Shown here: in pieces, positions 9,361 through 31,556 of the stretch
Layout of the letters: the number at the start of each line of letters is the position of its first letter
Numbering within the stretch: the first letter of the stretch is position 1
Source: Vitiosangium sp. GDMCC 1.1324
Lineage (GTDB): Bacteria; Myxococcota; Myxococcia; Myxococcales; Myxococcaceae
Direction: 5' to 3'
DNA length: 64,000 bases
NCBI RefSeq assembly: GCF_003044305.1
Contig: NZ_PZOX01000005.1
Location: 451,493 to 515,492, forward strand
Notes under the pieces: model-generated
What the model saw: only the letters and a program-made list of their open reading frames with translations
What the model was told of the DNA's origin: nothing
Database searches by the model: none
Made by a program: the position numbers and the translations under genes

Positions 9361-9391
9361 GACCTGCTCCTTCGGAATCGTTCGCCCGGTC

Positions 9392-9431: not shown

Positions 9432-9501
9432 ACGTCCTTCCCGAGGGAGAACGCGAATCCCCTGCCCGTCTTCCTATCCTCCAGGATAAAGTCCTATCCG
9501 C

Positions 9502-11539: not shown

Positions 11540-11909
11540 ATGACTCGTGCATACGATCTTCCCGGTGCCGTGCAGTGGCATGAAGGAATGCTGCTCGCAC
11601 CCCAGCACTTCCAACAGCAGGACCGCCGATACGAGGCGCTGCTGCACTTCCATCTCGGCCTGGACATACCCTTCCACTGGGGCGTGAGCCAGCTCCAGTA
11701 TGACTGGGTCTTCCAGTCCTCCACCTTCACGCAGCCCTCGCTGCTGCGCGGCCTCTACTTCTGCGGTGCCCTCCCACCTGCTGGAGCGCAAGGCCTTCCC
11801 CGAGAGCGGACTGGCCAGCCCGAATGTCGAGGCCGCGCGCATCAACCGGCGGGGCGCCTCACCCTTCGATGACGCCCCCCCGCCCCCACCCTCCTCCCCG
11901 AGCCCCCAG
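11540..11909 (+). pseudogene. remnant in-frame fusion of tssK N-terminus (~50 codons) to an internal segment of the tssM-like gene, with a frameshift
   Basis: MTRAYDLPGAVQWHEGMLLAPQHFQQQDRRYEALLHFHLGLDIPFHWGVSQLQYD is ~80% identical to the N-terminus of TssK at 27028. It continues as VFQSSTFTQPSLLRGLYFCG (vs LFESSPYTEPALLRGIYFCG in the 23211-24827 protein). In another frame it reads HLLERKAFPESGLASPNVEAARINRR (vs QLLERKAFPESGLASPEAEALRKNRR). Confidence 0.6.
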
Positions 11910-11911
11910 CC

Positions 11912-13006
11912 ATGGACGACATGAACCCCGCCTCTCCACTGGACCTCGAGCCGATCCTGCGGCCGATCTCCCCCGACGCGCCCTCGGGACGCAGCCTGCG
12001 CTACGAGCCCCTCTACGATCAGATCCGCGAGGCGCGCCGCGAGGATGACCCCTCGCTGCCCCAGGGCGTCTGGCAGACCTCCCTCAAGCGCGCCAACTGG
12101 GCCCAAGTGACCGAGCTCTGCCAGCAGGCCCTGGCGCACGAATCCAAGGACCTGCAGCTGGCCACCTGGCTCACCGAGGCCTGGGGAATCCAGCAGGGCT
12201 TCCCGGGCGTGGCGCAGGGACTGAGCCTGACCACCGCGCTGGTGGATCGCTTCTGGGATTCCCTGTGGCCGGCCCTCGAGGACGAGGATGCGGAGGCCCG
12301 GCTCGCCCCCCTGGCATGGCTCGACGACAAGCTTCCCCTCGTCCTGGGCAAGGTGCCCCTCGTCAAGGCGCAGACTCCCGGCGGCGTGAGCATTGACTTC
12401 GCGGCCTGGCAGCGGATCCTCCACCGGGAGAAGCACCAGGGAGCTGGCCAGGACGAATCGAGCCCAGAGAAAGCCGGGGCCTCGAGTGGCCCTCTGAACC
12501 GGGAGACCTTCCTGGCCAGCGCCGCGCTGATGCCAGCCCCCGCCCTCGACATGCTCGCGCGAGGGGTGGACGCCGCACTGGCGGCCAGCTCCGCACTGGA
12601 GCAGGCCCTCGACTCGCGGCTGGGACGAACCAGCGCGGCACTGCGCCGCACCCGCTCCACCCTCGGCGACCTCCAGACGCTGGTCTCCACGCTGCGCGCC
12701 AACACCCCTCGGGAGGAACCCGGAGCGGGAGTCGAAGCCCCGCTGGACACGGCGGTCGCGGACATGCCCTCGGTACCGGGGCGGCGTTCGGGCGCCATCC
12801 GTAGCCGGGAGGAGGCCTACCAGATGCTGGCCCTCGCCTCCGACTACCTGCGGCGTACCGAGCCCCACAGCCCCGTCGCCTACCTGGTCAAGCGCGCCGT
12901 GAGTTGGGGACAGATGCCGCTCGCCCAGCTCCTCTCGGAGCTCGTCCCCGATTCCTCCAACCTGGAAGCCATCCAATCTCTGCTCGGCATGAAGAAAGCG
13001 GAGTGA
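11912..13006 (+). CDS. tssA: type VI secretion protein TssA (ImpA N-terminal domain)
   Basis: PISPDAPSGRSLRYEPLYDQIREARREDDPSLPQGVWQ is the ImpA_N signature. 364 aa. Confidence 0.8.
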   Translation: MDDMNPASPLDLEPILRPISPDAPSGRSLRYEPLYDQIREARREDDPSLPQGVWQTSLKRANWAQVTELCQQALAHESKDLQLATWLTEAWGIQQGFPGVAQGLSLTTALVDRFWDSLWPALEDEDAEARLAPLAWLDDKLPLVLGKVPLVKAQTPGGVSIDFAAWQRILHREKHQGAGQDESSPEKAGASSGPLNRETFLASAALMPAPALDMLARGVDAALAASSALEQALDSRLGRTSAALRRTRSTLGDLQTLVSTLRANTPREEPGAGVEAPLDTAVADMPSVPGRRSGAIRSREEAYQMLALASDYLRRTEPHSPVAYLVKRAVSWGQMPLAQLLSELVPDSSNLEAIQSLLGMKKAE

Positions 13007-13026
13007 GCCCCTCGTGAGGCCAGACC

Positions 13027-13494
13027 ATGACACAGAGCAAGCAGCTCCGCGGATTCCCGGCCCCGCTGTTCGACAGGCTGATGGACCTGGAGACCGTCCC
13101 CGCCGTGCTGGATGAGCAGGAATTGCGCGCCTCGGTGAGGCGCGAGGTGGCCCATGCGCTGAGCACCCGCTGCATGCTCTCCCTGGAGCAGGCGGATGCG
13201 CTCGAGCCACACGAGCGCTCGGTCCTGGACTATGGGCTGCCCGACCTGCGGACACTCGGCTCCACCGCCGACGCCGCCCGGCAACTGGAGCGGATCATCT
13301 CCCGCGCGGTGGAGGCCTACGAGCCACGCCTGCGGCAACTCCGGGTCTCCGTGCGGCTTCCTCCCGAGGAGGAAGGCCTCCCCGTCGCGGTGATCACCGC
13401 CCGGCTGGTGCACGAGCCCATGACGGAGCCCATCACCTTTCCGCTGCAGCTGGACCGGAGCGGGAGGCTGTTGGAGGTGGGCGAGGAGCGCTGA
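13027..13494 (+). CDS. tssE: T6SS baseplate protein TssE (gp25-like)
   Basis: PLFDRLMDL...ASVRREVAHALSTRCMLSLEQ...VLDYGLPDL...RAVEAYEPRL is the GPW/gp25 family pattern. 155 aa. Confidence 0.75.
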   Translation: MTQSKQLRGFPAPLFDRLMDLETVPAVLDEQELRASVRREVAHALSTRCMLSLEQADALEPHERSVLDYGLPDLRTLGSTADAARQLERIISRAVEAYEPRLRQLRVSVRLPPEEEGLPVAVITARLVHEPMTEPITFPLQLDRSGRLLEVGEER

Positions 13495-13553
13495 AGCCTC
13501 ACAAAGGATGCCGGCGGTTTCTCCCTTACATGTCTCACGGAAAGGAGCGGTAG

Positions 13554-14129
13554 ATGACATACATCAACATGACGACGGGACTGCTGAATGCGACGTACAG
13601 ATTGCTCGCCGAGTCGGCGAAGAATCCCGTCGAGGTCGGACTGCTGATGCGTTGGAACGAGGACGACCGTTACCTCTGGACGATCTGGTCCGAGGCATAC
13701 CATCCGGGCATCGTCACCAGCTATTCCTCGGCTGGGATGAGACGCGATGTCGGTGGGCATGCCGAGGAGATATTGATCAAGAATTGGAGGGGATACGAGC
13801 AAGAGGCGGGTTTCCGCCCCCGGATCGTCGATCTGATCCTCACCAAGCTTCCCTGCTTCATGACTTCGAATGCCGTGACGCTGGGCACGCGTCAACTGCC
13901 CGTGGGTTGTGCCGGCAAGCTCAAGGTGCTCATCGAGGAGATACAGCCCGGCGTGCTCGATTGGCGGCTCGCCTATTTCAGGGAGCTGAACCCCGGCCCC
14001 AACTCGGATATCGAGAACGGTGGATCCCTGTCGCTCCTGAGCACAATCCAAAAGCTGTCGGTCTACTCATTCTTGGATCACCATTCCTTCGTGGCGCAGG
14101 GCTTCGGGGATGGGCTGACGATTGCCTGA
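13554..14129 (+). CDS. hypothetical protein, lower GC than neighbours; candidate deaminase-like fold (HAE ... PC motif spacing)
   Basis: 191 aa. Contains GGHAEEILIKNW followed ~29 aa later by LTKLPCFMTSNAV. RBS ggaaaggag upstream. GC visibly lower than flanking T6SS genes. Confidence 0.55.
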   Translation: MTYINMTTGLLNATYRLLAESAKNPVEVGLLMRWNEDDRYLWTIWSEAYHPGIVTSYSSAGMRRDVGGHAEEILIKNWRGYEQEAGFRPRIVDLILTKLPCFMTSNAVTLGTRQLPVGCAGKLKVLIEEIQPGVLDWRLAYFRELNPGPNSDIENGGSLSLLSTIQKLSVYSFLDHHSFVAQGFGDGLTIA

Positions 14130-14213
14130 ATTGGCGCCCGTCACATCTCCCCGCGCCACGCTCTACCCTGGAGTGCGCAGTGAAAGCCAGACACACTGAA
14201 AAGGAAGAATGAC

Positions 14214-14723
14214 ATGCCCACAAAGGAAAGCATCCAACACGTTCTGGATCGGGTCCGCCCTCCGCGGGTGCAGATCACCTACGACGTGGAGATTGGTGAC
14301 GCGGTGGAACAGAAGGAGCTGCCGCTGGTGGTCGGCGTCCTGGCGGACCTGGCCGGCCAGCAGAAGGAGCTGCCTCGGTTGAAGGAGCGCAAGTTCGTGG
14401 AGATCGACCGCGACAACTTCAACAAGGTGATGGCGGCCATCGGGCCCCAGCTGCGGATGTCCGTGCCGGACAAGCTGCGCGACGATGGCGGCAGCATGGC
14501 CGTGGAGCTGCGCTTCAAGAGCATCGACTCCTTCCACCCGCGCCAGCTCGTCGAGCAGATAGAGCCCCTGCGGAAGCTGCTGGAGGCGCGCCAGCGGCTG
14601 GTGGACCTGCTCGCGAAGCTGGACGGCAATGACGCGCTGGCGGAGCTGCTGCGGTCCGCGCTGGAGGACAGGGCTCGCCTCCAGGCGCTCGAGTCCGAGC
14701 TGGCGGCGAAGCGCGAGCAGTGA
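14214..14723 (+). CDS. tssB: T6SS contractile sheath small subunit TssB (VipA)
   Basis: MPTKESIQHVLDRVRPPRVQITYDVEIGDAVEQKELPLVVGVLADLAGQ; 169 aa. Confidence 0.9.
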   Translation: MPTKESIQHVLDRVRPPRVQITYDVEIGDAVEQKELPLVVGVLADLAGQQKELPRLKERKFVEIDRDNFNKVMAAIGPQLRMSVPDKLRDDGGSMAVELRFKSIDSFHPRQLVEQIEPLRKLLEARQRLVDLLAKLDGNDALAELLRSALEDRARLQALESELAAKREQ

Positions 14724-14764
14724 GCACCCGTACCCATCCACACACACGACACGGAGAGAGAGAG

Positions 14765-16261
14765 ATGTTCCAGGAAGAAATGAAGGAAGAGGCACGGGGT
14801 ACCCAGACGGCGGTGACGGAGCCGGAGCGGGGACTGCTGGCGCGCATCATCGAAGAGGGCAGGCTGGCGCGCGACGACAGCCAGCAGCCCCGCGCCCGCG
14901 AGCTGGTGGGCGAGCTGGTGAGCCAGGCGCTCTCCACGGAGTCCATTCCCAGCGGCATGGACGTGGTGTCGCTCATCAACCAGCGCATCGCCCGCATCGA
15001 CGAGCTGCTGGGCACTCAGCTCGACGAGGTGCTCCACGCCGAGCCCTTCCAGCGGTTGGAGGCCTCCTGGCGGGGGTTGCACATGCTGGTCCATGGCACC
15101 GAGACGGGGACGAACCTGAAGCTGCGCGTGCTGCACGCCACCAAGAAGGAACTGCTGGATGACCTGGAGCGGGCGCCCGAGTTCGACCAGAGCGCCCTCT
15201 TCAAGAAGGTCTACGAGGAGGAGTACGGCACCTTCGGCGGTCAGCCGTACGGGGTGCTCATCGGCGACTACGAGTTCGGCCGGGTGCCCCGGGACGTGGC
15301 GCTGCTGGAGTCCATCTCCCACGTGGCCGCCGCCGCCCACGCCCCTTTCATCACCGCGGCCAGTCCCTCGCTGTTCGACCTGGACAGCTTCACGGACATT
15401 GGCGCCCCGAGGGACCTGGCGCGCATCTTCGAGAGCACCGAGCTCATCCGCTGGCGGAGCTTCCGGGATTCGGAGGACGCCCGCTACGTGTCGCTGGTGT
15501 TGCCCCATGTGCTGGGAAGGCTGCCCTATGGCGAGGACACCCAGCCGGTGGAGGGCTTCGGCTACCAGGAGGACGTGGACGGCAGGGATCACCGCAAGTA
15601 CCTGTGGGGCAACGCGGCGTACGCCCTGGGCCTGCGTATCACCGCCGCCTTCGCGCTCTACCAGTGGTGCGCCAACATCCGCGGGGTGGAAGGGGGCGGC
15701 ATCGTCCAGGGGCTGCCCACGCATACCTTCCGCACCGACGAGGGGGACATCGCCCAGAAGTGCCCCACCGAGGTGGCCATCACCGACCGGCGTGAGAAGG
15801 AGTTGAGCGACCTGGGCTTCATCGCCCTGTGCCACTGCAAGGGAACCGACTACGCGGCCTTCTTCGGCTCGCAGACGGCCAACAAGCCCCGCCGCTACGA
15901 CACGCCCCAGGCCAATGCCAACGCGGAGCTGTCCTCCCAGCTGCCCTACATCCTGTCCTCCTCGCGCTTCGCCCACTACCTCAAGGTCATCATGCGCGAC
16001 AAGATTGGCGGCTTCGCCTCGCGCGAGGAGATCTCCGACTACCTCAACCGGTGGATCAGCCAGTACGTGCAGACGAACGAGAACGCATCCTTCTCCATCA
16101 AGGCCCGCCAGCCGCTGCGCGAGGCGCAAGTGGACGTCACCGAGGTGCCGGGCCACCCTGGCAGCTACCGGGCGGTGGTGTTCCTCCGCCCCCACTTCCA
16201 GCTCAACGAGCTGACCGCCTCCATCCGCCTGGTGGCCGAGCTGCCCAAGTCGGCCGCGTGA
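14765..16261 (+). CDS. tssC: T6SS contractile sheath large subunit TssC (VipB)
   Basis: ~498 aa with conserved TssC core (..YGVLIGDYEFG.., ..LPHVLGRLPYGE.., ..GLPTHTF..). ATG 14765 preferred over GTG 14720 (RBS ggagagag). Confidence 0.9.
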   Translation: MFQEEMKEEARGTQTAVTEPERGLLARIIEEGRLARDDSQQPRARELVGELVSQALSTESIPSGMDVVSLINQRIARIDELLGTQLDEVLHAEPFQRLEASWRGLHMLVHGTETGTNLKLRVLHATKKELLDDLERAPEFDQSALFKKVYEEEYGTFGGQPYGVLIGDYEFGRVPRDVALLESISHVAAAAHAPFITAASPSLFDLDSFTDIGAPRDLARIFESTELIRWRSFRDSEDARYVSLVLPHVLGRLPYGEDTQPVEGFGYQEDVDGRDHRKYLWGNAAYALGLRITAAFALYQWCANIRGVEGGGIVQGLPTHTFRTDEGDIAQKCPTEVAITDRREKELSDLGFIALCHCKGTDYAAFFGSQTANKPRRYDTPQANANAELSSQLPYILSSSRFAHYLKVIMRDKIGGFASREEISDYLNRWISQYVQTNENASFSIKARQPLREAQVDVTEVPGHPGSYRAVVFLRPHFQLNELTASIRLVAELPKSAA

Positions 16262-16319
16262 GCCCCGGCCTCCACCGTCGTCATCTCCCAGACTCATTTC
16301 CATGAGGCGTTAGAAAGAC

Positions 16320-16781
16320 ATGGCTTCAAGCATTTATCTCAAGATCGCCAAGGCAGAGGGCAGCTCGCAGACCGATAAATTCAAGGACCAGATCGAGGTC
16401 CTCTCCTACCGTTATGAAATCGCCTTCCCCATGACGCTCAACGAGCGGTCCAACAAGGACGGGGGGATCGTCCGGCAGGGCCGCTCCGATCACGGACAGG
16501 TCGTCATCACCAAACACGTGGACAAGGCCTCGCCCAATCTCTTTCTGTCCTGTTGCGTAGGGGATAGCGTCGGCAACGCCACCCTCACCGTGAGTGGAAG
16601 CAAGGACAAAAAGATTTTCACCTACGAAATGACAGACGTCATCATCACCTCGGTCGCCGTCGGGGGCGGGGGCTCGGACGACCCGGTGGAGACGGTGAAG
16701 CTCGACTACGGCACCATCAAATGGGCGCAGGGCGAGAGCAACTCGACGAAGTGGGATCGCAAGAAGAACGAGTCGACCTGA
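16320..16781 (+). CDS. hcp: Hcp (TssD) tube protein
   Basis: MASSIYLKIAKAEGSSQTDKFKDQIEVLSYRYEIAFPM...; 153 aa, Hcp1 family. Confidence 0.85.
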   Translation: MASSIYLKIAKAEGSSQTDKFKDQIEVLSYRYEIAFPMTLNERSNKDGGIVRQGRSDHGQVVITKHVDKASPNLFLSCCVGDSVGNATLTVSGSKDKKIFTYEMTDVIITSVAVGGGGSDDPVETVKLDYGTIKWAQGESNSTKWDRKKNEST

Positions 16782-16831
16782 GCCAGAAGACAGACACGCA
16801 CACGACAGCGGCGGACGAGTGGAGGAGAGCA

Positions 16832-18649
16832 ATGGGCAGCAGTCAAGAAGAGTTGCTCCAGGCCTACCAGCGGGAGCTGGCATGGCTGCGCGGGGCGGGA
16901 GCGGAGTTCGCGGCCAGCTACCCCAAGCTGGCAGCGAGGCTGCGGCTGGGGGCCAGCGAGGTGGGCGATCCCCACGTGGAGCGCCTCATCGAGTCGTTCG
17001 CCTTCCTCACCGCGCGCGTCCAGCACGCCTTCGACAGCGACCTGCCGGAGCTCTCCACCGCCCTGCTGGGCCTGCTGGCTCCCCACCTGGTGGAGCCACT
17101 GCCCTCGCTGTCCATCGCCTGCTTCGAGGTGGATACGGCTGCCGGCCTGCCCCTGGCCGGCAGCCGTATCGAGCGCGGCACGCTTCTGCTGGCCGAGCCG
17201 CGCCCGGGGCAGACGTGCCGCTTCCACACCTGCTCCCCGGTGACGCTCTGGCCGCTGCGGGTGGCGGAGGCGAGCCTGGAGTCCCCGCTCTCCTTCGGCT
17301 GGCTGCGCGGGCGGCGGGACGTGTCGGCGGTGCTCCGGCTGCGGTTGGAGGCCAGCGAGGCCCGGCTGGCGGACCTGCAGTTGGATCGGCTCCAGTTCTT
17401 CCTCGACGGGCCCCCCGAGGTGACCTTCCGCCTCTTCGAGCTGTTCACCTGCCATGCCCGGGACGTGGCGCTCGTGCCGGACGGCTCGCCCGGCGAGCCC
17501 CGCTTCCAGCCCGCGGACAGCCTGCGGCAGCTCGGCTTCGGCCCCGAGGAGGCGGTGCTGCCTTCCCCGCCCCACCTCCACCGCGGCTACCGCCTCCTAC
17601 AGGAGTACTTCGCCTTCCCCGAGAAGTTCCTCTTCTTCGAGCTGGCGCTGGAGCGCGCGTGCGTCCAGGCCTCCCAGCAGGCGCTCGAGGTGCTCGTGCT
17701 GCTGGATGCCACGCCCGGCGAGGACCTCGCGCTCACGCCCGAGACGTTCCGGCTGGGCTGTACCCCCATCGTCAATCTCTTCCCCCAGCTGGCCGAGCCC
17801 ATCCGGTTGGACCAGCGCCGCACCGAATACCCGCTGGTGCCCGACTACCGCCGCCAGCAGGAGCTGGAGCTGCACTCCGTGCTCTCCGTCACCGCCGCCA
17901 CGGAAGGTGCCGGGCACCCGCAGGTGGTGGAGCCCTTCTTCTCCTGGCGCCACCGGGAGGACGAGCAGGAGCCGCGCGCCTTCTGGTACGCACGGCGCCG
18001 GCCCACGGGCCGCGCGCTGGGGCCCGGCTCCCAGGTGATGCTGTCCTTCGTGGACCTGGCGCTCGACCCCCACCTGCCGGCGGAGCAGACGCTGAACGTG
18101 CGCACGCTGTGCACCAACGGGGAGCTGCCCGTGCAGCTCGCGCCCGGCTCGGAGCTCCAGGTGGAGGAGCGCGTCCCCGTGGGCGCCATCCGCTGCCTGC
18201 GCCGTCCCACGCCGCCTCGCGCGCCCCCGGACCGGGGCCCCATGCTCTGGCAGCTCGTCTCGCTGCTGTCGCTCAACCACCTCTCGCTCGCCAACGGCCC
18301 CCAGGCGCTGGAGGCGCTCGAGGAGCTGCTGCGGCTGCATGACTTCTCCGGCGGCCAGGTGTGCGAGCACCAGCTCCAGGGCCTGACGGGAATGGAGAGC
18401 CGCCCGGTGGTGCGCCAGCGCGGCTGGGATGCCTGGCGGGGTTTCTGCCGGGGCCAGGAGATCACCCTCACCTTCGACGAGTCCCTCTACGTGGGCGGCA
18501 GTGCCCTGCTCCTCGCGGCGGTGCTCCATCACTTCTTCGGCCTGTACGCCCCGGTGGATTCCTTCACCCAGCTCGCCGCGAGGAGCGAGCAGCGAAAGGA
18601 CACATGGAAACGATGGCCCCCCATGGCCGGCGACGCGCCCCTGGTGTAG
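16832..18649 (+). CDS. tssF: T6SS baseplate protein TssF (ImpG/VasA)
   Basis: MGSSQEELLQAYQRELAWLRGAGAEFAASYPKLAARLRL...DPHVERLIESFAFLTARV is the TssF N-terminal signature. RBS ggaggagagc. Confidence 0.85.
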   Translation: MGSSQEELLQAYQRELAWLRGAGAEFAASYPKLAARLRLGASEVGDPHVERLIESFAFLTARVQHAFDSDLPELSTALLGLLAPHLVEPLPSLSIACFEVDTAAGLPLAGSRIERGTLLLAEPRPGQTCRFHTCSPVTLWPLRVAEASLESPLSFGWLRGRRDVSAVLRLRLEASEARLADLQLDRLQFFLDGPPEVTFRLFELFTCHARDVALVPDGSPGEPRFQPADSLRQLGFGPEEAVLPSPPHLHRGYRLLQEYFAFPEKFLFFELALERACVQASQQALEVLVLLDATPGEDLALTPETFRLGCTPIVNLFPQLAEPIRLDQRRTEYPLVPDYRRQQELELHSVLSVTAATEGAGHPQVVEPFFSWRHREDEQEPRAFWYARRRPTGRALGPGSQVMLSFVDLALDPHLPAEQTLNVRTLCTNGELPVQLAPGSELQVEERVPVGAIRCLRRPTPPRAPPDRGPMLWQLVSLLSLNHLSLANGPQALEALEELLRLHDFSGGQVCEHQLQGLTGMESRPVVRQRGWDAWRGFCRGQEITLTFDESLYVGGSALLLAAVLHHFFGLYAPVDSFTQLAARSEQRKDTWKRWPPMAGDAPLV

Positions 18650-19632
18650 CCCAGGAGCTCTTCGAGTCCGGCCACCGCTTCGACTTCTTCCAGGCCATGC
18701 GCCTGCTGCGCCTGCTCCGCCCGAAGGATCCGGTGCGGCTGCGCGCCTCGGTGGACCTGGCCTTCCCTCCCAGCGACATCGTCCAGGTGAAGCCGCCCGC
18801 GAAGCCGGGGGCCGCACCGGAGATGACGGTGGCCTTCCTCGGACTGGGCGGGGTGCAGGGGCCGCTGCCGAGGCCCTTCGCCCAGCAGCTCCGGGACCGC
18901 ACGCGCGCGGGAGACACCGGGCTGCGCGACTTCCTGGACATCTTCCACCACCGGCTGCTGTCGCAGCTCTACCAGGGGCGGGTGCTGCGCCGGGTGTGGC
19001 TGGAGCCGGGCCCGCCCGAAGCACACGCCGTGGCGCGCTACCTGTATGCGGTGATGGGCCTGGGCACCCGGGGCATGCGCGAACGGCTGGAGGTGGAGGA
19101 TCGGCTGCTGCTGCGCTACGCCGGGCTGCTGGCGCACCGGCCCGTGTCCCTGGAGGCGCTGCGGGCGATGCTCTCGGACGCGCTGGGGGTGGGGGTGAGG
19201 CCGCGGGCGCCCCGGGGCGCCTGGCTGGAGCTGGAAGAGGAGCAGCGCACGCGCCTGGGCCCCACCGGACGCAACCAGCGGCTCGGCCAGGGCGCGGTGC
19301 TCGGCGGGCGCGCCTGGCTGGAGCAGGCGGGCCTGGAGCTGGAGCTCGGGCCCCTCTCCTGGCGCCGCTACGTGGACCTGCTGCCCGGTAGCCGGGGACT
19401 GGGCGCCCTGCGCTCGCTCACCCGCTTCGCGCTGGGCCCCGGCCCCGAGGTGCGCCTGGTGCTAGCGGTGCGCACCGGGGAGATCCCCGAGCAACCCCTG
19501 AGCGCTCCGCACGGCCCGCGCCTGGGGTGGACGTCCTGGCTGAGAGCCAGACCGGGCCGGCAGGGAACGCAGGCGGTGGCGCTCTCGCCCCGTCACATGT
19601 CCGCGCCAGGCGCGCGGGAGGATGGAACATGA
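18604..19632 (+). CDS. tssG: T6SS baseplate protein TssG (ImpH)
   Basis: ...GHRFDFFQAMRLLRLL... is the TssG N-terminal motif. Start ambiguous (ATG 18604, 18613 or 18626); overlaps the tssF 3' end. Confidence 0.8.
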   Translation: METMAPHGRRRAPGVAQELFESGHRFDFFQAMRLLRLLRPKDPVRLRASVDLAFPPSDIVQVKPPAKPGAAPEMTVAFLGLGGVQGPLPRPFAQQLRDRTRAGDTGLRDFLDIFHHRLLSQLYQGRVLRRVWLEPGPPEAHAVARYLYAVMGLGTRGMRERLEVEDRLLLRYAGLLAHRPVSLEALRAMLSDALGVGVRPRAPRGAWLELEEEQRTRLGPTGRNQRLGQGAVLGGRAWLEQAGLELELGPLSWRRYVDLLPGSRGLGALRSLTRFALGPGPEVRLVLAVRTGEIPEQPLSAPHGPRLGWTSWLRARPGRQGTQAVALSPRHMSAPGAREDGT

Positions 19633-21479
19633 GGTCGGGATACACGCAGGACAACGTCTACCTCTCCGTCACCACGCCCCTGGGCAAGGACGTGCTGCTG
19701 CTGCACGGCATCCAGGGCGAGGAGGCCCTCTCCCAACCCTTCCACTTCACCCTGGAGCTGCACTCCGATCGGCTCGACGTGGACTTCTCGCGGGTGGTGG
19801 GCAAGAGCGCCACCATCTCCCTGGCCCAGCGGGACGGCAGTGAGCGCTTCTTCCACGGCATCATCACCCGCTTCGTCCAGGCCGGCACCTTCGCGGACTT
19901 CACCCGGTACATCGCCGAGCTGCGCCCCTGGTTCTGGCTGCTCACCCTCACCCGCGACAGCCGCATCTTCCAGAACCAGACGGTGCCGCAGATCCTCCAG
20001 CAGCTCTTCCAGGACCAGGGCTTCACCGACTTCCGGCTGGCGCTGCGGCGCACCTACACCCCTCGCGAGTATTGCGTGCAGCACCAGGAGTCCGCCTTCG
20101 ACTTCGCCTCGCGGCTGATGGAGGACGAGGGCATCTTCTACTTCTTCGAGCACACGAAGGACCGGCACACGCTGGTGCTGGCAGACGACGCGGCGGCCCA
20201 TGTGCCCTGCCCGGGGCCCGGGGTGGCGAAGGTCCAGGGGCACCTGAACGCGGCGCGGACGGAGGATGCCGTCACCGGGTGCGAGCTGGAGCAGCAGGTG
20301 GTGCCCGGGCGCTATGCCCTGGGGGACTACTTCTTCGAGACGCCGTCGACCCGGCTCCAGACCCAGGTGAAGGGCAAGGAGGGGAGCCAGGAGCAGTACG
20401 AGTACCCCGGGGACTTCACGCGCCGGGACGTGGGCGAGCGGCGCGGCCGGGTCCGGCTGGAGGCCCACGAGGCGCAGGCCCGGACCCTGCGAGGCCAGGG
20501 CCACGTGCGCTGGTTCATCCCCGGCTACCGCTTCACCCTCGCCGAGCACGAGCGCAAGGACCTCAATGGGGCGTACGTGCTGCGCTGGGTGTCGCACTCG
20601 GCCACGGTGGAGGCGTACTCCAACAGCTTCGAGGCCTTCCCCGCCGCCACGCCCTTCCGTCCGCCCCGGGTGACGCCCCGGCCGGTGGTCCACGGCGTCC
20701 AGAGCGCCCGGGTGGTGGGCAAGGCGGGCGAGGAGATATGGACGGACCGGTTCGGCCGGGTGAAGGTCCAGTTCCACTGGGACCGCGAGGGCAAGAAGGA
20801 CGAGAGCAGCTCGTGCTGGATGAGGGTGGCCCAGGGCCAGGCCGGCAAGGGCTGGGGCAACTTCTTCCTGCCCCACGTGGGCCAGGAGGTGCTCGTCACC
20901 TTCCTGGATGGGGATCCGGATCGGCCCATCGTCACCGGCTCCGTCTACAACGCCGAGCAGGTGGTGCCCTATCCGCTGCCCGCCGGACAGACCAAGAGCA
21001 CGTTGCGCGGGGATTCCTCCGGCAAGGGGGAGCCCAATGAGCTGCGCTTCGAGGACAAGAAGGGCGCGGAAGAGCTCTACCTGCACGCCCGCCGGGACAT
21101 GAAGACCACCGTGGCGCGCGACAGCGTGACGGAGATTCAAGGCAACTGCACCATCCGGGTGCGGGGCAACCTCACCCTGGACGTGGGGGGTTCCATCAAA
21201 ATCAAGGCGGGGAGGAGCCTCACCCAGGAGGCGAAGATGTCGCTGACGAGCATCGCGGGGATGAACCTCACCCAGAAGGCGAAGCTCGCCCTGGAGAGCT
21301 CGGCGGGAACGATGCTGATGCACAAGTCCAAGCTCATGATGATGAACGACGCCCAGATGCTGCTCAGCAACGTCAAGACAATGCACGTGCTCAAGGGGAT
21401 GCCCATGATGCTCCAGCTTCCGTTCCTCCCTGTCCCGGCGGGGGTGCCTCCACTCCCACCGATTCCGGACACCCCCTGA
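19629..21479 (+). CDS. vgrG: VgrG (TssI) spike protein, core only, no C-terminal effector extension
   Basis: MRSGYTQDNVYLSVTTPLGKDVLLLHGIQGEEALSQPFHFTLEL... (gp27-like), then gp5-like OB and beta-helix; 616 aa. ATGA start/stop overlap with tssG. Confidence 0.9.
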   Translation: MRSGYTQDNVYLSVTTPLGKDVLLLHGIQGEEALSQPFHFTLELHSDRLDVDFSRVVGKSATISLAQRDGSERFFHGIITRFVQAGTFADFTRYIAELRPWFWLLTLTRDSRIFQNQTVPQILQQLFQDQGFTDFRLALRRTYTPREYCVQHQESAFDFASRLMEDEGIFYFFEHTKDRHTLVLADDAAAHVPCPGPGVAKVQGHLNAARTEDAVTGCELEQQVVPGRYALGDYFFETPSTRLQTQVKGKEGSQEQYEYPGDFTRRDVGERRGRVRLEAHEAQARTLRGQGHVRWFIPGYRFTLAEHERKDLNGAYVLRWVSHSATVEAYSNSFEAFPAATPFRPPRVTPRPVVHGVQSARVVGKAGEEIWTDRFGRVKVQFHWDREGKKDESSSCWMRVAQGQAGKGWGNFFLPHVGQEVLVTFLDGDPDRPIVTGSVYNAEQVVPYPLPAGQTKSTLRGDSSGKGEPNELRFEDKKGAEELYLHARRDMKTTVARDSVTEIQGNCTIRVRGNLTLDVGGSIKIKAGRSLTQEAKMSLTSIAGMNLTQKAKLALESSAGTMLMHKSKLMMMNDAQMLLSNVKTMHVLKGMPMMLQLPFLPVPAGVPPLPPIPDTP

Positions 21480-21495
21480 GCGGAGGGAAGAGCCC

Positions 21496-22119: not shown

Positions 22120-22260
22120 GGGAGCTGCTGCCGCCCCAGGATTCCTCGCCCAGCGCAACGCGAATGCACACGTCCGGGTCTACGACAGCTTCATTCCCCG
22201 GCCACTGTATGCCCTTCCGGTTCCCCACATGACTCCAACATGCGGCGAGATGAAACACGC

Positions 22261-23087
22261 CTACGGCTGGATGTTCTTGTTCAACCGGAAGAAGTTGGTC
22301 GGGTCGTAGGTGCGCTTCAGGGCGGTGAGGCGCTTCCATTTGGCCTCGCCGTACGTCTCCCGCACACGCCCGGCGGGCTCGTCGGCGTCGATGAAATTGA
22401 GCGGGGTCCCCCCGCTCGAGAAGGAGTGGGCGGCTTGCCAGGCGTCCTGCACCCAGCGAGTGTGGCGCTCGGCGTCGGCCGGGTCTCTCCAGCTCGACTG
22501 GAACATCGAAAAGAAAGGCGACGCGCGCCCCGAGAATGCGGTCTCGTCCTCGCCAACCCACGCGATCGCGCCCTTCATATGGGCGAGCTCCAGGAAGCAG
22601 AGGGACGACGGGGCCGCTCGAAGCTGCGCGGTGATGGCCTCGATGGCCTCCTCTCCCAGCTTGGAGAGATAATCCGAGCGGATGGCTTGACTGTAGCCAT
22701 GGGCAGCCCCCGGTCCCGAATCGAGTACCTTCTGATGACCCCCGCCTGAATGCGCGCGGTGCGCCGCGCTGGATCGACGCGGATGCCCTTCATGAGGGAG
22801 AGATCGATCACCAGGCCGCCGTCGCACACGCCGTTGCCGGCGACATCGTGCCCGCCGCCCCGCACCGCGACCAGCGCGTCGTGCTCCCGCGCGAACCGCA
22901 CGGCGGCGAGGGACATCGGCGGCCCCGGTGCATCGAGCGATCAACGCCGGCCGCTTGTCGATCCGAGCATTCCAGACGACGCGGGCCGCGTCGTAGCGCG
23001 GGCTGCCGGGGCAATGAGCTCGCCGCGAAAGTTGGACCGAAGCGAGTCGAGCGCGGATTGCTTGAAGCGAGCTCCCTGGGAATTCAT
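22261..23087 (-). pseudogene. decayed FAD-linked oxidase (BBE/PCMH-type) gene: three frames, internally deleted
   Basis: Frame 1: MNSQGARF...IAPGSPRYDAARVVWNARIDKRPALIARCTGAADV. Frame 2: AVRFAREHDALVAVRGGGHDVAGNGVCDGGLVIDLSLMKGIRVDPARRTARIQAGV (FAD_binding_4). Frame 3: ...GEDETAFSGRAS...YGEAKWKRLTALKRTYDPTNFFRLNKNIQP (BBE C-terminus). Total span ~830 nt versus ~1.4 kb expected. Confidence 0.55.
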
Positions 23088-23210
23088 GGTGGAAGGCCTC
23101 CTGGCGCCGAAGGGCGGGAAACCGCGGCGGCGGATGATGTGCGGCACGAGCAGGATGAGCACTTCCGTCCCCGGGCGGTGGAGATGCCGCCCAGGGAGGG
23201 GAGGGGCGCT

Positions 23211-24827
23211 TCATCCCTGGGGAATGACGATCTGCTGGCCCGGCATGAGGTTGTCTTTGTTGAGGCCGGGGTTGGCCTCCACGATGCGAGGCCATTGATT
23301 GCCGTCGTGCAGGTAGCGCTGGGCGATGTCGTAGATGATGTCGCCCGGCTTGACGGTGTAGAGCGTGCCCTTGGGTTTGTCCTTGGGCGCGTACTGGGAC
23401 GCGTACTGGGACGCGGAGGCCACGGGGCCCGTCTGGTTGGTCCAGCGGGGGCGCCCATCCGGGCCGCGGATGAGCAGGATGCCGTCGTCCCGCATCACCA
23501 GCTCGCTCTTCTCCTGGCCCTGGGTCTTGCTGCTCCACACGGGCGCATTGGCGGCCTGGTACACGACGAGATTGCCGTCGCGCTGCATGGCCGTGCGCCA
23601 GGCCCGCTTGCCCTGGGTGTTGGTGGCCCAGCGGGCCTGCTGGGTGGTCAGGTCGTAGATGACGAGGTTGCCGTCGTCCTGGTACACGAGGGCGAAGCGG
23701 CCGTTGGCGGAGACGAGCCGCTCGCCGGGCGTGAGGAACGCGTTGTCCCCTCCGCGCAGCACGCTCTTGGAGCCTCCGAGGAACACGCCCAGGAGGATCA
23801 GGAGCACGCCCAGCAGCACGCTCGCCGCGAGCCCTGCCTTGAGCAGGGTCAACTGCCGCCGGTTCTTGCGCAGGGCCTCGGCCTCGGGACTCGCCAGGCC
23901 GCTCTCGGGAAAGGCCTTGCGCTCCAGCAGCTGGGTGATGAAGGCCGGAGAGCGGGGCTCGCGCAGCCCGTCCCGGCCCGGCCGGAGGACACCTTCCGCG
24001 TCCGGATCCCCGCAGAAGTAGATGCCTCGCAGCAGCGCGGGCTCCGTGTAGGGGCTGGACTCGAAGAGTCCATCGAGCAGCCGCCGCACCGGCTCGGCCA
24101 TGTCGCGCAGCTGGGAGGGGAAGAGGAAGGCGGACTCGCGCTCGGCCGCGGTGCCGCGCCCATCGGCGAACAGCTCCAGCTGCATCGTGCACAGGCCCTG
24201 GTGGATGCTGGCGAAGGCCTCGTTCACCCACGCGGAGATGTACGGCTCCTGGGGCGGGTGGGGAGTGGACCAGCCGAGCATCTCCTCGCGCAGGCTCGGT
24301 GGCAGGGAGCGGCACCACGCCGTGAAGCCGGGGAGGACGTCACACTGGGTGATGACGACGTAGATGGGGAAGCGCACGCCCAGCTCGCCGCGCAGGGACT
24401 GCAAGCCCTGGAAGAGGGCACGCGCCTTGCGGTCGAGTCCGACGTCGTCGAGCGCCTGCGGGCCCATCAGCTCATGGGCCGGTATCGTGAGCAGCACGCC
24501 GTCGATGGGGCGCTGGCCCCGCACGCGGCGCAGATCTCTCAGCACGCCCTGGAACTCGGGCCCCGGCTCCTCCGTCAGGCCGGGCATGTCGATGACGGCG
24601 CCCTGGTCGTAGAGCCAGACGCCCCAGCCCTCGGCCTCCATCTCCTTGCGGCTGGGCGTACCGTAGGGACGGCGCAGGTGGGCGCCCGCGGCCAGCGAGG
24701 TGCGCCCCGAGCGCGGCTCTCCCACGAGCATGAGCCAGGGCAGTTGGTAGCGGCGATTGCGACGGGTGCCGGTGGCCCCGATGCGGTCGATCGCCGTGTC
24801 GATGGGAGATTTCTGGAGGGCGGTCAT
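23211..24827 (-). CDS. TssM/IcmF-like N-terminal NTPase domain protein fused to TM helix, bulb-type lectin (B_lectin) and C-terminal LysM domain
   Basis: Start MTALQK (ATGA overlap with tssL stop). YQLPWLMLVGEPRSGRTSLAAG (degenerate P-loop), PIYVVITQCDVLPGFTAWC (ImcF-related N-domain). TM LLKAGLAASVLLGVLLILLGVFLGG. Two QxDGNLVxY lectin motifs. LysM YTVKPGDIIYDIAQRYLHDGNQWPRIVEANPGLNKDNLMPGQQIVIP. Confidence 0.7.
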   Translation of the reverse strand: MTALQKSPIDTAIDRIGATGTRRNRRYQLPWLMLVGEPRSGRTSLAAGAHLRRPYGTPSRKEMEAEGWGVWLYDQGAVIDMPGLTEEPGPEFQGVLRDLRRVRGQRPIDGVLLTIPAHELMGPQALDDVGLDRKARALFQGLQSLRGELGVRFPIYVVITQCDVLPGFTAWCRSLPPSLREEMLGWSTPHPPQEPYISAWVNEAFASIHQGLCTMQLELFADGRGTAAERESAFLFPSQLRDMAEPVRRLLDGLFESSPYTEPALLRGIYFCGDPDAEGVLRPGRDGLREPRSPAFITQLLERKAFPESGLASPEAEALRKNRRQLTLLKAGLAASVLLGVLLILLGVFLGGSKSVLRGGDNAFLTPGERLVSANGRFALVYQDDGNLVIYDLTTQQARWATNTQGKRAWRTAMQRDGNLVVYQAANAPVWSSKTQGQEKSELVMRDDGILLIRGPDGRPRWTNQTGPVASASQYASQYAPKDKPKGTLYTVKPGDIIYDIAQRYLHDGNQWPRIVEANPGLNKDNLMPGQQIVIPQG

Positions 24828-25657
24828 CGGCGGTTCTCCTGGGCGGTGCGGGCGGCCGCGGGAGTGTGGTCGTGAGAGGTGTTGAGGACGATGGCGGTGG
24901 GGACGAGGACGAGGATCGCGGCGGCGATACCGGCGGCCCAGGGCCAGCGCGGCGCGAGCCGCCGATCCGAGCGCTCGTCCAGGGTGTGCGCGTAGGTCTG
25001 GGGCAGCAGCCGGCGCGACGGCGCGTCGGGCTCGGGCGGGCGTTGGTGGATGAGCACGTAGAGCTGGCGCTGCAGATCCTGCAGGAGCGCCTCCTCGCCG
25101 TGCTCGCGGTAGCGGCCCTGGAAACCGAGCGCGAGCATCAGCAGGTACACTTCGGCCATCTCGGCCTGGGTCGGGTCGCGGTCCTGCAGCAGGCGCTTCA
25201 CGTCTTCGAAGATGCGCTCGCCGGCGTGGTGGGTGCCAAAGAGCACGTCCTCCAGCAGGCCCTCGCGCCAAGCATCACGGCCGTACCACGGGGTGTTGAC
25301 GAGCACCTCGTCGGCGAAGCTGGCCATCACGTAGCGGCACTGCTCGAGCTGGCGCTCCTGGAGCGAGCCGCGGGGGGCGCCCTCGAGCCGGCTCTGCTGC
25401 TCCACGCGCGCGAGCAGTCGCTGGCGGATCTCCTCGACACTGGGGCCCTGCCGCCCCTGTCCGGAGGGGCGGGAGATGGCCTGCAGGCGTTGGCGCAGCT
25501 CGAGCAGCTCCGTGAAGAGCGTGCGGGTGCGCTCGAGCAACAGGGAGGAGCCGGACGGCTCATCGAAGAAGGGAGGCGTGTTCATGGCGGAAGAGGGCTC
25601 GCGGCGCCTGCCCCGGTCGTTCCAGGACGAGGAGGCGGAATGGGATGACGGACTCAT
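24824..25657 (-). CDS. tssL: T6SS membrane protein TssL (DotU family)
   Basis: LEQCRYVMASFADEVLVNTPWYGRDAW...FGTHHAGERIFEDVKRLL...EVYLLMLALGFQGRY plus C-terminal TM AAGIAAAILVLVPTAIVL. Alternative start ATG 25585. Confidence 0.8.
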   Translation of the reverse strand: MSPSSHSASSSWNDRGRRREPSSAMNTPPFFDEPSGSSLLLERTRTLFTELLELRQRLQAISRPSGQGRQGPSVEEIRQRLLARVEQQSRLEGAPRGSLQERQLEQCRYVMASFADEVLVNTPWYGRDAWREGLLEDVLFGTHHAGERIFEDVKRLLQDRDPTQAEMAEVYLLMLALGFQGRYREHGEEALLQDLQRQLYVLIHQRPPEPDAPSRRLLPQTYAHTLDERSDRRLAPRWPWAAGIAAAILVLVPTAIVLNTSHDHTPAAARTAQENRR

Positions 25658-25714
25658 GTGTGGTGACTCCTTCGGTTCTCAGGGTGAGTGGTGACGGCTG
25701 GATGTGACGTGGAC

Positions 25715-27028
25715 TCACGGCTCGTTGCGGATGAGCAGGGAGATATCGGCGGCGGCCTGCACCTCTCCGGGCTCCAGCGTGTTCTCGAGCAACAGCCGCT
25801 CATCGGGCCGGAGGTAGAAGGGACTGGCCTCCAGGGAGAAGAGGAGCGCACCAGGGCGGGGCACCAGGCCCGCGGGGGGCTCGATGAGCTCGCGCCGGGC
25901 CCCGAGCGTGCGCGTCTCGCGCATCTGCCGGTGGCGCGTGTCCGAGCCGATGCGGCACCCGGCCATCCATCCCAGCACCTGCTGCCGCGTGGTGCCCGGA
26001 CGGCCGCGCACTTCGAGCACCATCTCGCGGCCCATCCACGCGGGGAGCAGGCGCGTGTGGAAGCCGCTGCCCTCGGGAGTGAGCTGCACCCGCGTGTACG
26101 CCTCGGAGAGGCCCCGCTCCAGCGCGCCCTCGACGAAGTCGAACACCTGTTGGAAGGAGCGCAGCGGATCCAGGTGCTCGTACGCGGGGAACGCGGGAGG
26201 GATGCGCACCTCCGCGACGTGGGCGACCTGGCCGGCCAGGGAGCACAACGCGAGGTAGAGGGTGAAGGGGTGCACCTCGCCGGAGCGCAGCAGGGCCTCG
26301 TAGGGCGGCAGCCCGGCCACGAGCCAGTGCAGCTGACGCTGGTGCTCGGCGAGCACGTGCGGCTCGTCGGCGGCGTCGCGCATGGCCTCCACCAGGTGGG
26401 CGGCTTTCTGCCGGACGCGCAGGGAGAGCCGGTCACAGCGCTCGCCGAGCGTCGAATCCAGGCCCACGGCGAGCAGCGGCGGCAGGTAGTCCTCCACGGC
26501 GAAGGACTCGCCCAGGCGGCGCACCTCCACGAGCGGCAGGGAGGCGTACCCGGCGGGAGGCAGGCCGGCGAACAGCTGCAGGCGCGGGGTGAGCTGGGGG
26601 ATGCTCAGCGGCGTGTCCCCGGTGCTCTCGTCGACGAGCGGCTCGCTGGTGGTGGACACGAAGCGGCTGGGATTGCTCGTGCGCCCGGTGGGCACGCCCA
26701 CGTGCAGACGCACCGGGTGCTGCCAGTTCACCTCGGTGAGGCCCGCGAAGGCGAGTTGGAGGGGCGGGGCTCCTTCTCCCGCCTGGTACGAGAGGAACAG
26801 CCCATCGGGCAGCAGGGCCTCCAATTCCCGGAGCTGGAGGGTGCCCGCCACCAGGCGCGTGCGGTCGTACTCCAGCCGGCTCACGCCCCAGTGGAAGGGC
26901 GCGGCCCGCTGGAGATGGAAGTGCAGCAGCGCCTCGTGGTGCTGGTCCTGCTGTTGGAAGTGTTGGGGGGCCAGCAGCATGCCCTCGTGCCATTGCACGG
27001 CGGAGGGAATCGGCGGGGTGGGAGGCAT
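25715..27028 (-). CDS. tssK: T6SS baseplate protein TssK
   Basis: MPPTPPIPSAVQWHEGMLLAPQHFQQQDQHHEALLHFHL... is the canonical TssK N-terminus; 437 aa. Confidence 0.85.
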   Translation of the reverse strand: MPPTPPIPSAVQWHEGMLLAPQHFQQQDQHHEALLHFHLQRAAPFHWGVSRLEYDRTRLVAGTLQLRELEALLPDGLFLSYQAGEGAPPLQLAFAGLTEVNWQHPVRLHVGVPTGRTSNPSRFVSTTSEPLVDESTGDTPLSIPQLTPRLQLFAGLPPAGYASLPLVEVRRLGESFAVEDYLPPLLAVGLDSTLGERCDRLSLRVRQKAAHLVEAMRDAADEPHVLAEHQRQLHWLVAGLPPYEALLRSGEVHPFTLYLALCSLAGQVAHVAEVRIPPAFPAYEHLDPLRSFQQVFDFVEGALERGLSEAYTRVQLTPEGSGFHTRLLPAWMGREMVLEVRGRPGTTRQQVLGWMAGCRIGSDTRHRQMRETRTLGARRELIEPPAGLVPRPGALLFSLEASPFYLRPDERLLLENTLEPGEVQAAADISLLIRNEP

Positions 27029-27680
27029 GAACTGTCTCTCGGAGGGAAGGGAGTCGGCTGGCAGGTCCCCCCAGGTCCGAGCCCGAGGAAATCCGCCTCA
27101 GGGGTGGAGCCACGGTGGGCGCGATGTGATGTGACTGCTTCCGGGACGTGCTTCCCCGCCCGCCGTCAGACCCGCTGGCTGTTGTGCTCGAAGGCTTGTC
27201 CCATGCGCGCCATCAGTTCCTCCGTGCCCAGCCGCCAAAGTCCGGCAGGTGCACCCCGGGTGGGAGGAACCACGTGCACGGGTGGCACTGTATGGGCGCT
27301 TCGTACGCCACCATGTGGTGGACGGAGTGGCGAAGCGATGGGCTGGTACTCGCCCCCTGAGCGGCCGAGCAACCCCGCGCAACCTCGGGCATCCATGCTC
27401 CCGTGCGGCCACCGGGGCCGTACATCGGCGCCCCGCACACGTCACCAAGAGATTCCCCCCGCGTGACCCGAACGATGCTATCGAACAGGCAGCAGACCGG
27501 CCCCTGCTCGGTTAGTTGCTCGACGCCGACCCATGGTCATGGGAGATGGCGGTGCCCGGTGAAGAGTGGGCCCAGGGACGTACGCAGTTCCCGGTTCGAG
27601 GCCGAGCTCGTCCCGGGGAGCAGGTGATCAACGTGGACACAGCAGTCATGCATGACGGTCAGTCGCGGGGACAGGCCCCC

Positions 27681-31503: not shown

Positions 31504-31556
31504 GCGACGCCGCGGCGCGCCACGAGCCCCTGCCTGGAAGAGCGGCCGGGTGACGG

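Follow-up and report, generated by a model that had tools for sequence, protein, structure and literature searches.

A 64-kb stretch of DNA from Vitiosangium sp. GDMCC 1.1324 (GCF_003044305.1), hereafter the window, carries a type VI secretion system (T6SS) locus at 11.5-27 kb. The locus keeps a complete tail and baseplate (TssA, B, C, Hcp, E, F, G, K, and VgrG), and its only membrane proteins are TssL and a truncated TssM (TssM'), with one membrane helix each. We think it probable that this is a lineage-specific, reduced subtype i system (T6SS-i) of the Archangiaceae, anchored in the inner membrane only. The descriptive part of this picture is near certain, and we see about even chances that the system is independent of components supplied in trans. 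In the proteobacterial-type T6SS, TssJ-L-M as channel and ClpV as recycler count among the core, near-essential parts, and the TssM periplasmic domain and the lipoprotein TssJ normally form the channel to the outer membrane.

Gene content of the locus and architecture of TssM'

Because the G+C content of the window is 64-73%, raw lists of open reading frames (ORFs) are crowded with spurious frames. Genes were called by third-position GC content (GC3) and then checked against Pfam and NCBIfam, which confirmed all 11 core genes that an earlier note on this DNA had listed, on the strands it had given (tssA, tssE, tssB, tssC, hcp, tssF, tssG, and vgrG on the plus strand; the tssM-like gene, tssL, and tssK on the minus strand). 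TssE, TssF, TssG, TssK, and TssA all scored over curated cut-offs. TssL has a single C-terminal membrane helix (aa 238-262, by hydropathy) and no peptidoglycan-binding domain. The window TssC is 93% identical to that of Archangium gephyra and ~70% identical to many T6SS-i TssC proteins, and TssF shares 91% amino acid identity with its A. gephyra counterpart. The TssM' sequence has a 100% match in NCBI, a protein from Vitiosangium sp. GDMCC 1.1324, an Archangiaceae myxobacterium.

ClpV, TssJ, PAAR, and a canonical TssM had been reported missing from the locus, and they are missing from all 64 kb as well by Pfam and tblastn; the window is the scope of every absence statement on ClpV, TssJ, and full-length TssM in Vitiosangium. 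Pfam scans of every sizeable high-GC3 ORF in the window returned no ClpV-like, TssJ-like, PAAR, or DUF4280 sequence, and tblastn searches of the window with the Clp-type ATPase, TssJ, PAAR, and DUF4280 proteins of related loci found nothing. For TssJ, there was no T6SS-SciN match on the scanned ORFs, and tblastn with the TssJ of an outgroup locus (L010; related loci and proteins are cited by our own L and P numbers) was empty in the window and in 10 related loci, although its sensitivity outside the cluster is low. The gaps between cluster genes are too small for a further gene, leaving no unassigned coding space. Thus, of the 13 core components of a T6SS-i (TssA-TssM), the window holds sheath, Hcp/VgrG, baseplate, TssA, and TssL, and no full-length TssM, TssJ, or ClpV; it also has no PAAR/DUF4280 spike tip, an accessory part that most systems have. 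Gene context was also read at ~14 related loci, up to 10 kb on each side of the anchor gene, and these stretches contained no clpV or tssJ. Spike-tip genes do occur in some relatives, as a PAAR gene after vgrG in Archangium lansingense and L012 and as DUF4280 in L006 and Archangium minus.

A second, ClpV-bearing Vitiosangium T6SS was sought through TssC homologues, and no second Vitiosangium TssC appeared among the best 120 matches. One TssC labelled "MAG: Archangium sp." (P0146; MAG, metagenome-assembled genome) is 97% identical to Longimicrobiaceae sequences and probably reflects mis-binning of a contig, not a second T6SS in a myxobacterium. The literature that we searched describes no truncated TssM and no ClpV-less T6SS in myxobacteria, which is absence of evidence only.

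A full-length TssM has an N-terminal membrane hairpin, a cytoplasmic NTPase domain, a third membrane helix, and a large periplasmic domain in contact with TssJ. The TssM model TIGR03348 matches TssM' only over positions 96-454 of 1168, scoring 161 bits where the curated cut-off is 388, so that both the N-terminal membrane segment(s) and all that comes after the cytoplasmic domain are missing. TssM' lacks the canonical periplasmic domain (~700-900 aa), to which no similarity was found in any frame, and unrelated sequence follows the stop codon. The earlier note had described a 539-aa TssM relative that keeps only the cytoplasmic domain. This is not so: the protein has 538 aa and runs from a cytoplasmic GTPase-like IcmF-N domain through one membrane helix (~aa 326-352, by hydropathy) to a periplasmic B-lectin/monocot mannose-binding lectin (MMBL) domain and a LysM domain (~aa 491-537). 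The lectin has two intact QxDxNxVxY sugar-binding motifs (aa 383-391 and 415-423) and matches the putidacin L1 lectin-like bacteriocin family (3e-25, NCBIfam). We modelled TssM' with AlphaFold2 from 22 homologues (mean predicted local distance difference test score, pLDDT, 72). In Foldseek comparisons of this model, the predicted cytoplasmic part resembled TRAFAC GTPases (EngB, Era, MnmE, FeoB, and Toc34), and the predicted periplasmic part resembled monocot mannose-binding lectins, pyocin L1, and LlpA. The TssM' family profile had no matches among PDB sequences.

The P-loop of TssM' reads GEPRSGRT (aa 36-43), with Arg in place of the Walker A Lys, so that the GxxxxGK[ST] pattern is absent. 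All 21 family members checked share this Arg. In the nearest full-length TssM relatives, R or Q stands at the same position, vs. GK[TS] in 89 of 90 distant TssM proteins. Because the replacement is common to the full-length relatives, it predates the truncation.

Conservation and origin of the reduced cluster

The reduced set is kept in at least 10 named species from five Archangiaceae genera. A search of 5.8 billion proteins yielded 21 TssM' homologues of 409-542 aa, from Melittangium boletus, Cystobacter fuscus, Cystobacter ferrugineus, A. gephyra, Archangium violaceum, A. minus, A. lansingense, Hyalangium minutum, and Hyalangium versicolor, the others being metagenomic. The same 11-gene cluster without tssJ or clpV is present in A. 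gephyra (two strains), M. boletus, A. lansingense, H. versicolor, and C. fuscus, as well as on two metagenome contigs with myxobacterial marker genes and at six further loci from a genome scan. The earlier note had left two alternatives, that the missing parts are encoded elsewhere or that this is a minimal or non-recycling variant, and this breadth of conservation lends support to the second.

We aligned the window protein with 13 of the 21 TssM' homologues and two locus translations. The alignment contains a conserved cytoplasmic domain of ~330 aa with an invariant G-E-P-x-x-G-R-T-S, one membrane helix, and a variable periplasmic tail. Most tails are Pro-rich with one to three (W/F)DD(A/S)PP repeats (P0004-P0020; e.g., aa ~385-415 of A. 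gephyra P0007), for which no partner is known. An MMBL-lectin tail is found in Vitiosangium, Melittangium, a Cystobacter MAG, and the metagenomic P0003, and LysM follows the lectin in the first three, that is, wherever the C-terminus is complete.

At each of the ~14 loci, the genes form one co-directional operon, in one of two sub-layouts. In A. gephyra, C. fuscus, and H. versicolor, the order is tssK-L-M'-A-E-(191-aa ORF)-B-C-hcp-F-G-vgrG. In A. lansingense, A. minus, and some MAGs, it is tssK-L-M'-A-B-C-hcp-E-F-G-vgrG-(PAAR or DUF4280), and Melittangium has this same order without PAAR. The eleven core ORFs are intact in all genomes read except L013, a nanopore-type assembly with scattered breaks. 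Pairwise ratios of nonsynonymous to synonymous substitution rates (dN/dS) against A. gephyra and Melittangium are 0.14-0.64, with 0.14 for TssC and 0.44-0.53 for TssM' (0.44 vs. Melittangium), and TssC identity across genera is 76-93%. As judged from these sequence comparisons, the core genes are under purifying selection.

Some loci differ in detail. TssB and TssC are fused in M. boletus (651 aa; L001 12785-14740) and in a metagenomic relative (727 aa; L032 5334-7517). Just 3' of vgrG, several loci have a gene for a small RicinB lectin that starts with a Sec signal peptide (ARA|E): L002 20854-21263, L005 17590-18141, L006 16334-16864, L012 20583-21023, and L036 18114-18623. We asked whether this gene could be the separately encoded equivalent of the lectin fused to TssM'. 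Six of the 7 covered loci with Pro-rich tails have it and neither of the two lectin-LysM loci does, but it is also missing from H. versicolor, so the pattern is not universal.

To trace the truncation, we used the TssM' cytoplasmic domain as the query of an exhaustive HMMER search against 1.84 billion representatives. The match starts at residue 1-3 in two representatives only. Most other matches are proteins of 1040-1700 aa in which it starts at about residue 50-130, and the shorter entries (365-900 aa) mostly start at residue 60-130 and were read as fragments. P0231, P0263, and P0326 match from residue 1-8, and their architecture lies outside this comparison. The closest full-length relatives, P0223 (51% identity, 1040 aa), P0224, and P0225, have the same tssK-L-M-A-B-C order. 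When 185,579 species genomes were scanned, short forms turned up in Archangiaceae and nowhere else; the next relatives there, at 30-37% identity, belong to Desulfobacteraceae and Acidobacteria and have TssM proteins of 1375-1519 aa. The scan returned no Vitiosangium, M. boletus, A. gephyra, or A. violaceum although their proteins contain the search patterns, so the collection apparently lacks or masks some records. The outgroup L010, whose TssC is 72% identical, is arranged as tssJ-K-L-M(1784 aa)-B-C-hcp-E-F-G, with a gene for a Clp-type ATPase next. Its "TssM" (4096-9450) contains TssA-like sequence at aa ~1410-1505 and the locus has no separate tssA, so this protein is apparently a TssM-TssA fusion. 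Given full-length TssM in the nearest outside relatives and the gene set of L010, the Archangiaceae cluster is a reduced derivative of an ordinary T6SS-i, and by this comparison the truncation is derived and confined to the Archangiaceae lineage.

The sheath offers a further clue. The N-terminal ClpV-docking motif of TssC has been defined (PMC4239648), and the window TssC reads LLARII at the position of LLDxII. The acidic residue of this motif is lost in 15 of 16 reduced-cluster TssC proteins (to Ala, Met, or Thr), vs. Asp or Glu at the third position in all but one of ~107 TssC relatives. The hydrophobic core LLxxII of the docking helix is retained. The loss fits relaxed constraint on ClpV docking and is suggestive only.

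Mosaic history and neighborhood of the Vitiosangium locus

The coordinates of the locus and its relics are collected in Table 1.

Table 1. Features of the Vitiosangium T6SS locus (positions in the window)
Feature	Position	Strand	Evidence
Relic of native tssK-tssL-tssM'	11540-11872	+	tssK codons 1-55 fused to two tssM' fragments
tssA (364 aa, short TssA type)	11912-13006	+	ImpA_N 4.8e-39; TIGR03363 7.7e-94, above curated cut-off
tssE (155 aa, gp25-like baseplate wedge)	13027-13494	+	GPW_gp25 2.6e-13
191-aa accessory ORF	13554-14129	+	GC3-supported frame; annotated hypothetical protein
tssB (169 aa, small sheath subunit)	14214-14723	+	T6SS_VipA 3.6e-56
tssC (498 aa, large sheath subunit, full length including C-terminal VipB_2)	14765-16261	+	VipB 4.3e-136; VipB_2 1.9e-45
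hcp (153 aa, tube)	16320-16781	+	T6SS_HCP 3.3e-29
tssF (605 aa, baseplate)	16832-18649	+	T6SS_TssF 4.7e-200
tssG (342 aa, baseplate)	18604-19632	+	T6SS_TssG 1.3e-83
vgrG (616 aa, spike, without C-terminal effector domain)	19629-21479	+	Phage_GPD 5.5e-99; Phage_base_V; Gp5_trimer_C; TIGR03361 1.9e-184
MORN_2-repeat (YwqK-like) protein, 207 aa	21496-22119	+	MORN_2 1.3e-07; directly 3' of vgrG
FAD-linked (BBE-type) oxidase pseudogene fragment, frameshifted	22261-22916	-	FAD_binding_4 8e-14, model positions 15-73 only; BBE 3e-10 in different frame
tssM' (538 aa)	23211-24827	-	IcmF-related_N 1.2e-51; LysM 7.2e-12; B_lectin (Pfam)
tssL (277 aa, DotU)	24824-25657	-	DotU 9.9e-35; TIGR03349 6e-32, 111 bits vs. 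cut-off 90
tssK (437 aa, joins baseplate to membrane complex)	25715-27028	-	T6SS_VasE 7.7e-47; TIGR03353 1.4e-68
HvfC_N-family gene relic	27237-27386	+	tblastn with L036 HvfC aa 25-74, 58%, 2.6e-12; blastn 86-87% to L036 and L005

Position 11540, where the earlier note had the locus begin, opens no live gene; its ATG belongs to a dead tssK::tssM relic. Positions 11540-11704 of this relic match A. gephyra TssK aa 1-55 at 82% (tblastn), with a weak Pfam match to the VasE N-terminus. Positions 11699-11767 correspond to TssM' aa 250-272 and 11772-11861, in another frame, to aa 293-322 (tblastn), and the relic is 86-91% identical to L002 by blastn. The fusion of tssK and tssM' fragments implies that ~2.7 kb were deleted. 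At the DNA level, rtcB-rtcR and tssB-to-vgrG are ~90% identical to A. gephyra and tssA-tssE 82%. The minus-strand tssM'-L-K block is 74-77% identical to A. gephyra and 78% to Melittangium over its full 3.8 kb, including the lectin-LysM region. Together, these comparisons show that the native tssK-L-M' next to rtcR was destroyed by deletion and that a divergent, Melittangium-type tssK-L-M' block arrived with an oxidase pseudogene.

The far edge of the incoming block can also be placed. In C. fuscus and A. lansingense, the HvfC_N-family gene lies ~2 kb downstream of vgrG, after RicinB-lectin and MbnB genes. The comparison shows that block 22120-27236 replaced the original genes downstream of vgrG, in inverted orientation, with the HvfC relic marking its far edge. 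The inverted replacement module and the deletion of the native genes together produce what look like convergent operons, a scar rather than a design. The earlier note's two convergent operons thus stand as far as genes on both strands are concerned, and fall as a system design: the relatives are co-directional, and here a relic is paired with an inverted replacement copy. This mosaic indicates that tssK-L-M' behaves as an exchangeable module. We also considered the ORF at 22261-24318 (minus strand) as a gene, but it is real only in its last ~130 codons (the BBE domain) and represents the frameshifted oxidase pseudogene.

Two accessory genes accompany the core set. The 191-aa ORF between tssE and tssB has invariant GGH[AT]EE and LPC-x17-C motifs, no membrane helix, and a GC3 below that of its neighbors, and its product may be a T6SS cargo or accessory protein. 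Homologues occur only in one A. gephyra strain (74%) and H. versicolor (63%), in the same slot between tssE and tssB (the L035 copy spans 8779-9354); relative to A. gephyra DSM 2261, the gene is an insertion. It has no Pfam, NCBIfam, or PDB match, and its AlphaFold2 model is unusable (pLDDT 40). A zinc-dependent deaminase, suggested by an HxE...PC...C pattern, is unsupported by either the profile searches or this model. An overlapping long ORF at 13508-14212 was also rejected as a gene, with an Arg-rich translation outside the GC3 frame. YwqK-type proteins are usually immunity proteins. The MORN_2 protein after vgrG has homologues of 178-207 aa with 51-77% amino acid identity in A. gephyra (L002 20205-20780), Melittangium (L001 20485-21021), and C. 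fuscus (L036 17462-18040). It sits after vgrG in clusters without PAAR or DUF4280, and no partner toxin was identified. Hcp is locally divergent, at only 68% identity to A. gephyra, while the flanking TssC and TssF are at 91-93%.

The flanks bear no relation to T6SS: rtcA, rtcB, and rtcR lie upstream, and MatE and EamA transporters, hydrolases, an amylase, an S41 peptidase, DsbD, and a Ser/Thr kinase lie downstream (Pfam). The rtcA-rtcB genes and the sigma-54 activator gene rtcR (window 6950-11136) are directly upstream of the T6SS operon in four species (also L002, L005, L015, and L016). We looked for sigma-54 control via RtcR, but the consensus occurred 48 times where chance alone would give 67, and never in the intergenic regions of interest, so no evidence ties RtcR to the cluster. 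Close to the left end of the window is a DDE_5 transposase of an insertion sequence element (1197-2468, plus strand). About 5 kb past the T6SS genes, a gene for a 437-aa protein ending in an AHH nuclease toxin domain (32320-33633, plus strand) adjoins one for a myxobacterial DUF2378 protein (31554-32138, plus strand), and this pair may be a polymorphic toxin locus.

Weighing the readings and comparison with known systems

If the locus works as a reduced T6SS-i, TssK would hold the baseplate at the inner membrane by docking it on the cytoplasmic domains of TssL and TssM', as it does with TssL and TssM in known systems (PMC10781749). The TssL-TssM' pair would then serve as a docking platform, tethered to peptidoglycan or another envelope glycan by the lectin-LysM region or by the Pro-rich repeat tail. 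Sheath contraction would drive the Hcp/VgrG needle across the periplasm and the outer membrane with no pre-formed TssJ-TssM conduit. A general disaggregase, for instance ClpB, could take contracted sheaths apart, or they may just turn over slowly; firing frequency would then be low. We put forward more tentatively, and with somewhat less than an even chance of being right, the idea that an inner-membrane-only T6SS-i, built on TssL and a TssM' with a glycan/peptidoglycan-binding or Pro-rich tail and having neither a TssJ-TssM conduit nor a dedicated ClpV, would constitute a new class of membrane complex and a new mode of firing.

Several considerations weigh against such a system. The prevailing view is that a T6SS-i requires a membrane complex across the envelope (PMC10781749), and ClpV, TssJ, or full-length TssM encoded beyond the 64-kb window could act in trans. 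The Walker A Lys replacement, as read from the alignments, says little about the truncated form specifically. The degenerate docking motif also occurs in L030, L032, and L034, the nearest (metagenomic) clusters with full-length TssM, whose ClpV status is unseen, so motif loss does not map cleanly onto ClpV loss. Finally, Vitiosangium has no PAAR or DUF4280 in the 64 kb and shows local decay in the form of two relics and one pseudogene.

One rival reading is supply in trans. In that case, the locus would be a second T6SS, incomplete in itself, that depends for ClpV, and perhaps also for TssJ and a full-length TssM, on a complete cluster elsewhere in the genome, e.g., one of the Myxococcus xanthus type. 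M. xanthus, from the sister family, has a cluster with ClpV (MXAN_4813; PMC4239648; PMC5801462), Archangiaceae genomes of 10-13 Mb have room for several clusters, the core of the TssC docking helix is kept, and the search in Vitiosangium covered the window. We nonetheless consider borrowing unlikely. A foreign full-length TssM would make TssM' dispensable, yet TssM' is kept in every cluster under apparent purifying selection, and in Vitiosangium it was replaced as part of a tssK-L-M' unit after the native copy was lost. The near-universal loss of the acidic docking residue in reduced-cluster TssC and the lack of ClpV and TssJ in the stretches read at related loci likewise argue against it.

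The deleted native tssK-L-M', the oxidase pseudogene, and the HvfC relic could alternatively mark a decaying remnant that no longer assembles a working secretion system, and three canonical core functions are indeed missing, as are, from the Vitiosangium window, the PAAR/DUF4280 and RicinB genes of relatives. This we judge improbable, given that none of the eleven core ORFs is broken in Vitiosangium or in at least nine other genomes from five genera, with the low dN/dS ratios and high cross-genus TssC identity described above. That a replacement tssK-L-M' has stayed intact once the native genes were gone likewise speaks for selection on function. It is scarcely credible, in turn, that the short TssM is an artefact, with a full-length gene concealed by a contig end or by a frameshift introduced in assembly or annotation. 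Many metagenomic short IcmF-N proteins are indeed contig-end fragments, and short matches typically start at residue 60-130. Against an artefact, the sequence past the TssM' stop is unrelated to any periplasmic domain, the 21 independent homologues share the same ends (several of them from complete chromosomes of 9.9-13.8 Mb), and in relatives tssA begins within a few bases of the TssM' stop.

If the reduced T6SS-i reading holds, the conserved loss of tssJ, clpV, and the channel part of TssM in five genera of social, predatory bacteria would amount to a natural minimal system. Such a system would let one ask whether the membrane complex is needed for docking or as a conduit, and would allow tests of whether the needle can breach its own envelope unaided and how sheaths are recycled without ClpV. 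If the missing parts are instead supplied in trans, the locus would be a more modest case of an auxiliary cluster.

Compared with a canonical T6SS-i, ordered as (tssJ)-K-L-M-A-B-C-hcp-E-F-G-...clpV and exemplified by L010, the reduced cluster shares the Pfam/NCBIfam families of tail, baseplate, and spike and the backbone order, with TssC ~70% identical. It differs in having neither tssJ nor clpV, and in a TssM' of 409-542 aa vs. a TssM of 1040-1784 aa. The M. xanthus cluster, which the earlier note had suggested as a comparator, is not of the reduced type, since it has ClpV (MXAN_4813, PMC4239648); tagF is MXAN_4805 (PMC5801462), and our view of MXAN_4800-4813 as a canonical T6SS-i cluster derives from published locus tags only. 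A parallel is Acinetobacter baumannii, whose T6SS-i functions although it has no TssJ, which points to the membrane complex as the part of the machine that can evolve (PMC10564176). However, Acinetobacter keeps a full-length TssM with an added oligomerization feature and recruits TsmK and other envelope proteins (PMC10564176), whereas the reduced cluster has lost the TssM periplasmic domain, with no conserved substitute gene found in the cluster.

Other T6SS types resemble the locus in part, and the resemblance stops at different points. A trans-envelope component of the TssM/PdpB type and a lipoprotein resembling TssJ are both retained in Francisella and Campylobacter jejuni. Like the reduced cluster, the Francisella T6SS-ii (PMC5481754) and the C. 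jejuni system (PMC3428339) have no dedicated ClpV in the cluster. The Francisella sheath is recycled by the general disaggregase ClpB (PMC5481754), a precedent for the sheath disassembly proposed above. The Francisella sheath proteins IglA/IglB are highly divergent, whereas the Vitiosangium sheath is a typical VipA/VipB one; T6SS-ii membership is unlikely, as judged from VipA/VipB model scores without Francisella sequences in the comparison. The T6SS-iii of Bacteroidota retains ClpV. It likewise docks its baseplate on a non-TssJLM membrane complex, made up of TssN, O, P, Q, and R with no TssL or TssM (PMC10781749). The Vitiosangium cluster has TssL and TssM' and no unassigned membrane-protein genes, although no search aimed at TssN-R profiles was made. 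The T6SS-iv of Amoebophilus (Bock et al. 2017, summarized in PMC6745524) is described as having no canonical transmembrane anchor and no ClpV. That system has a tail related to extracellular contractile injection systems and no TssK/L/M/A homologues, while the Vitiosangium locus keeps TssA, TssK, TssL, the TssM N-domain, and T6SS-i tail families.

Finally, the tail of TssM' has an analogue within T6SS-i itself. TagL places a peptidoglycan-binding domain on an inner-membrane component (PMC10781749), and the LysM domain of TssM' would have a role analogous to that of TagL or of a TssL with an OmpA-like extension. Unlike these, it lies behind an MMBL lectin, is fused to TssM, and replaces the channel domain rather than adding to it.

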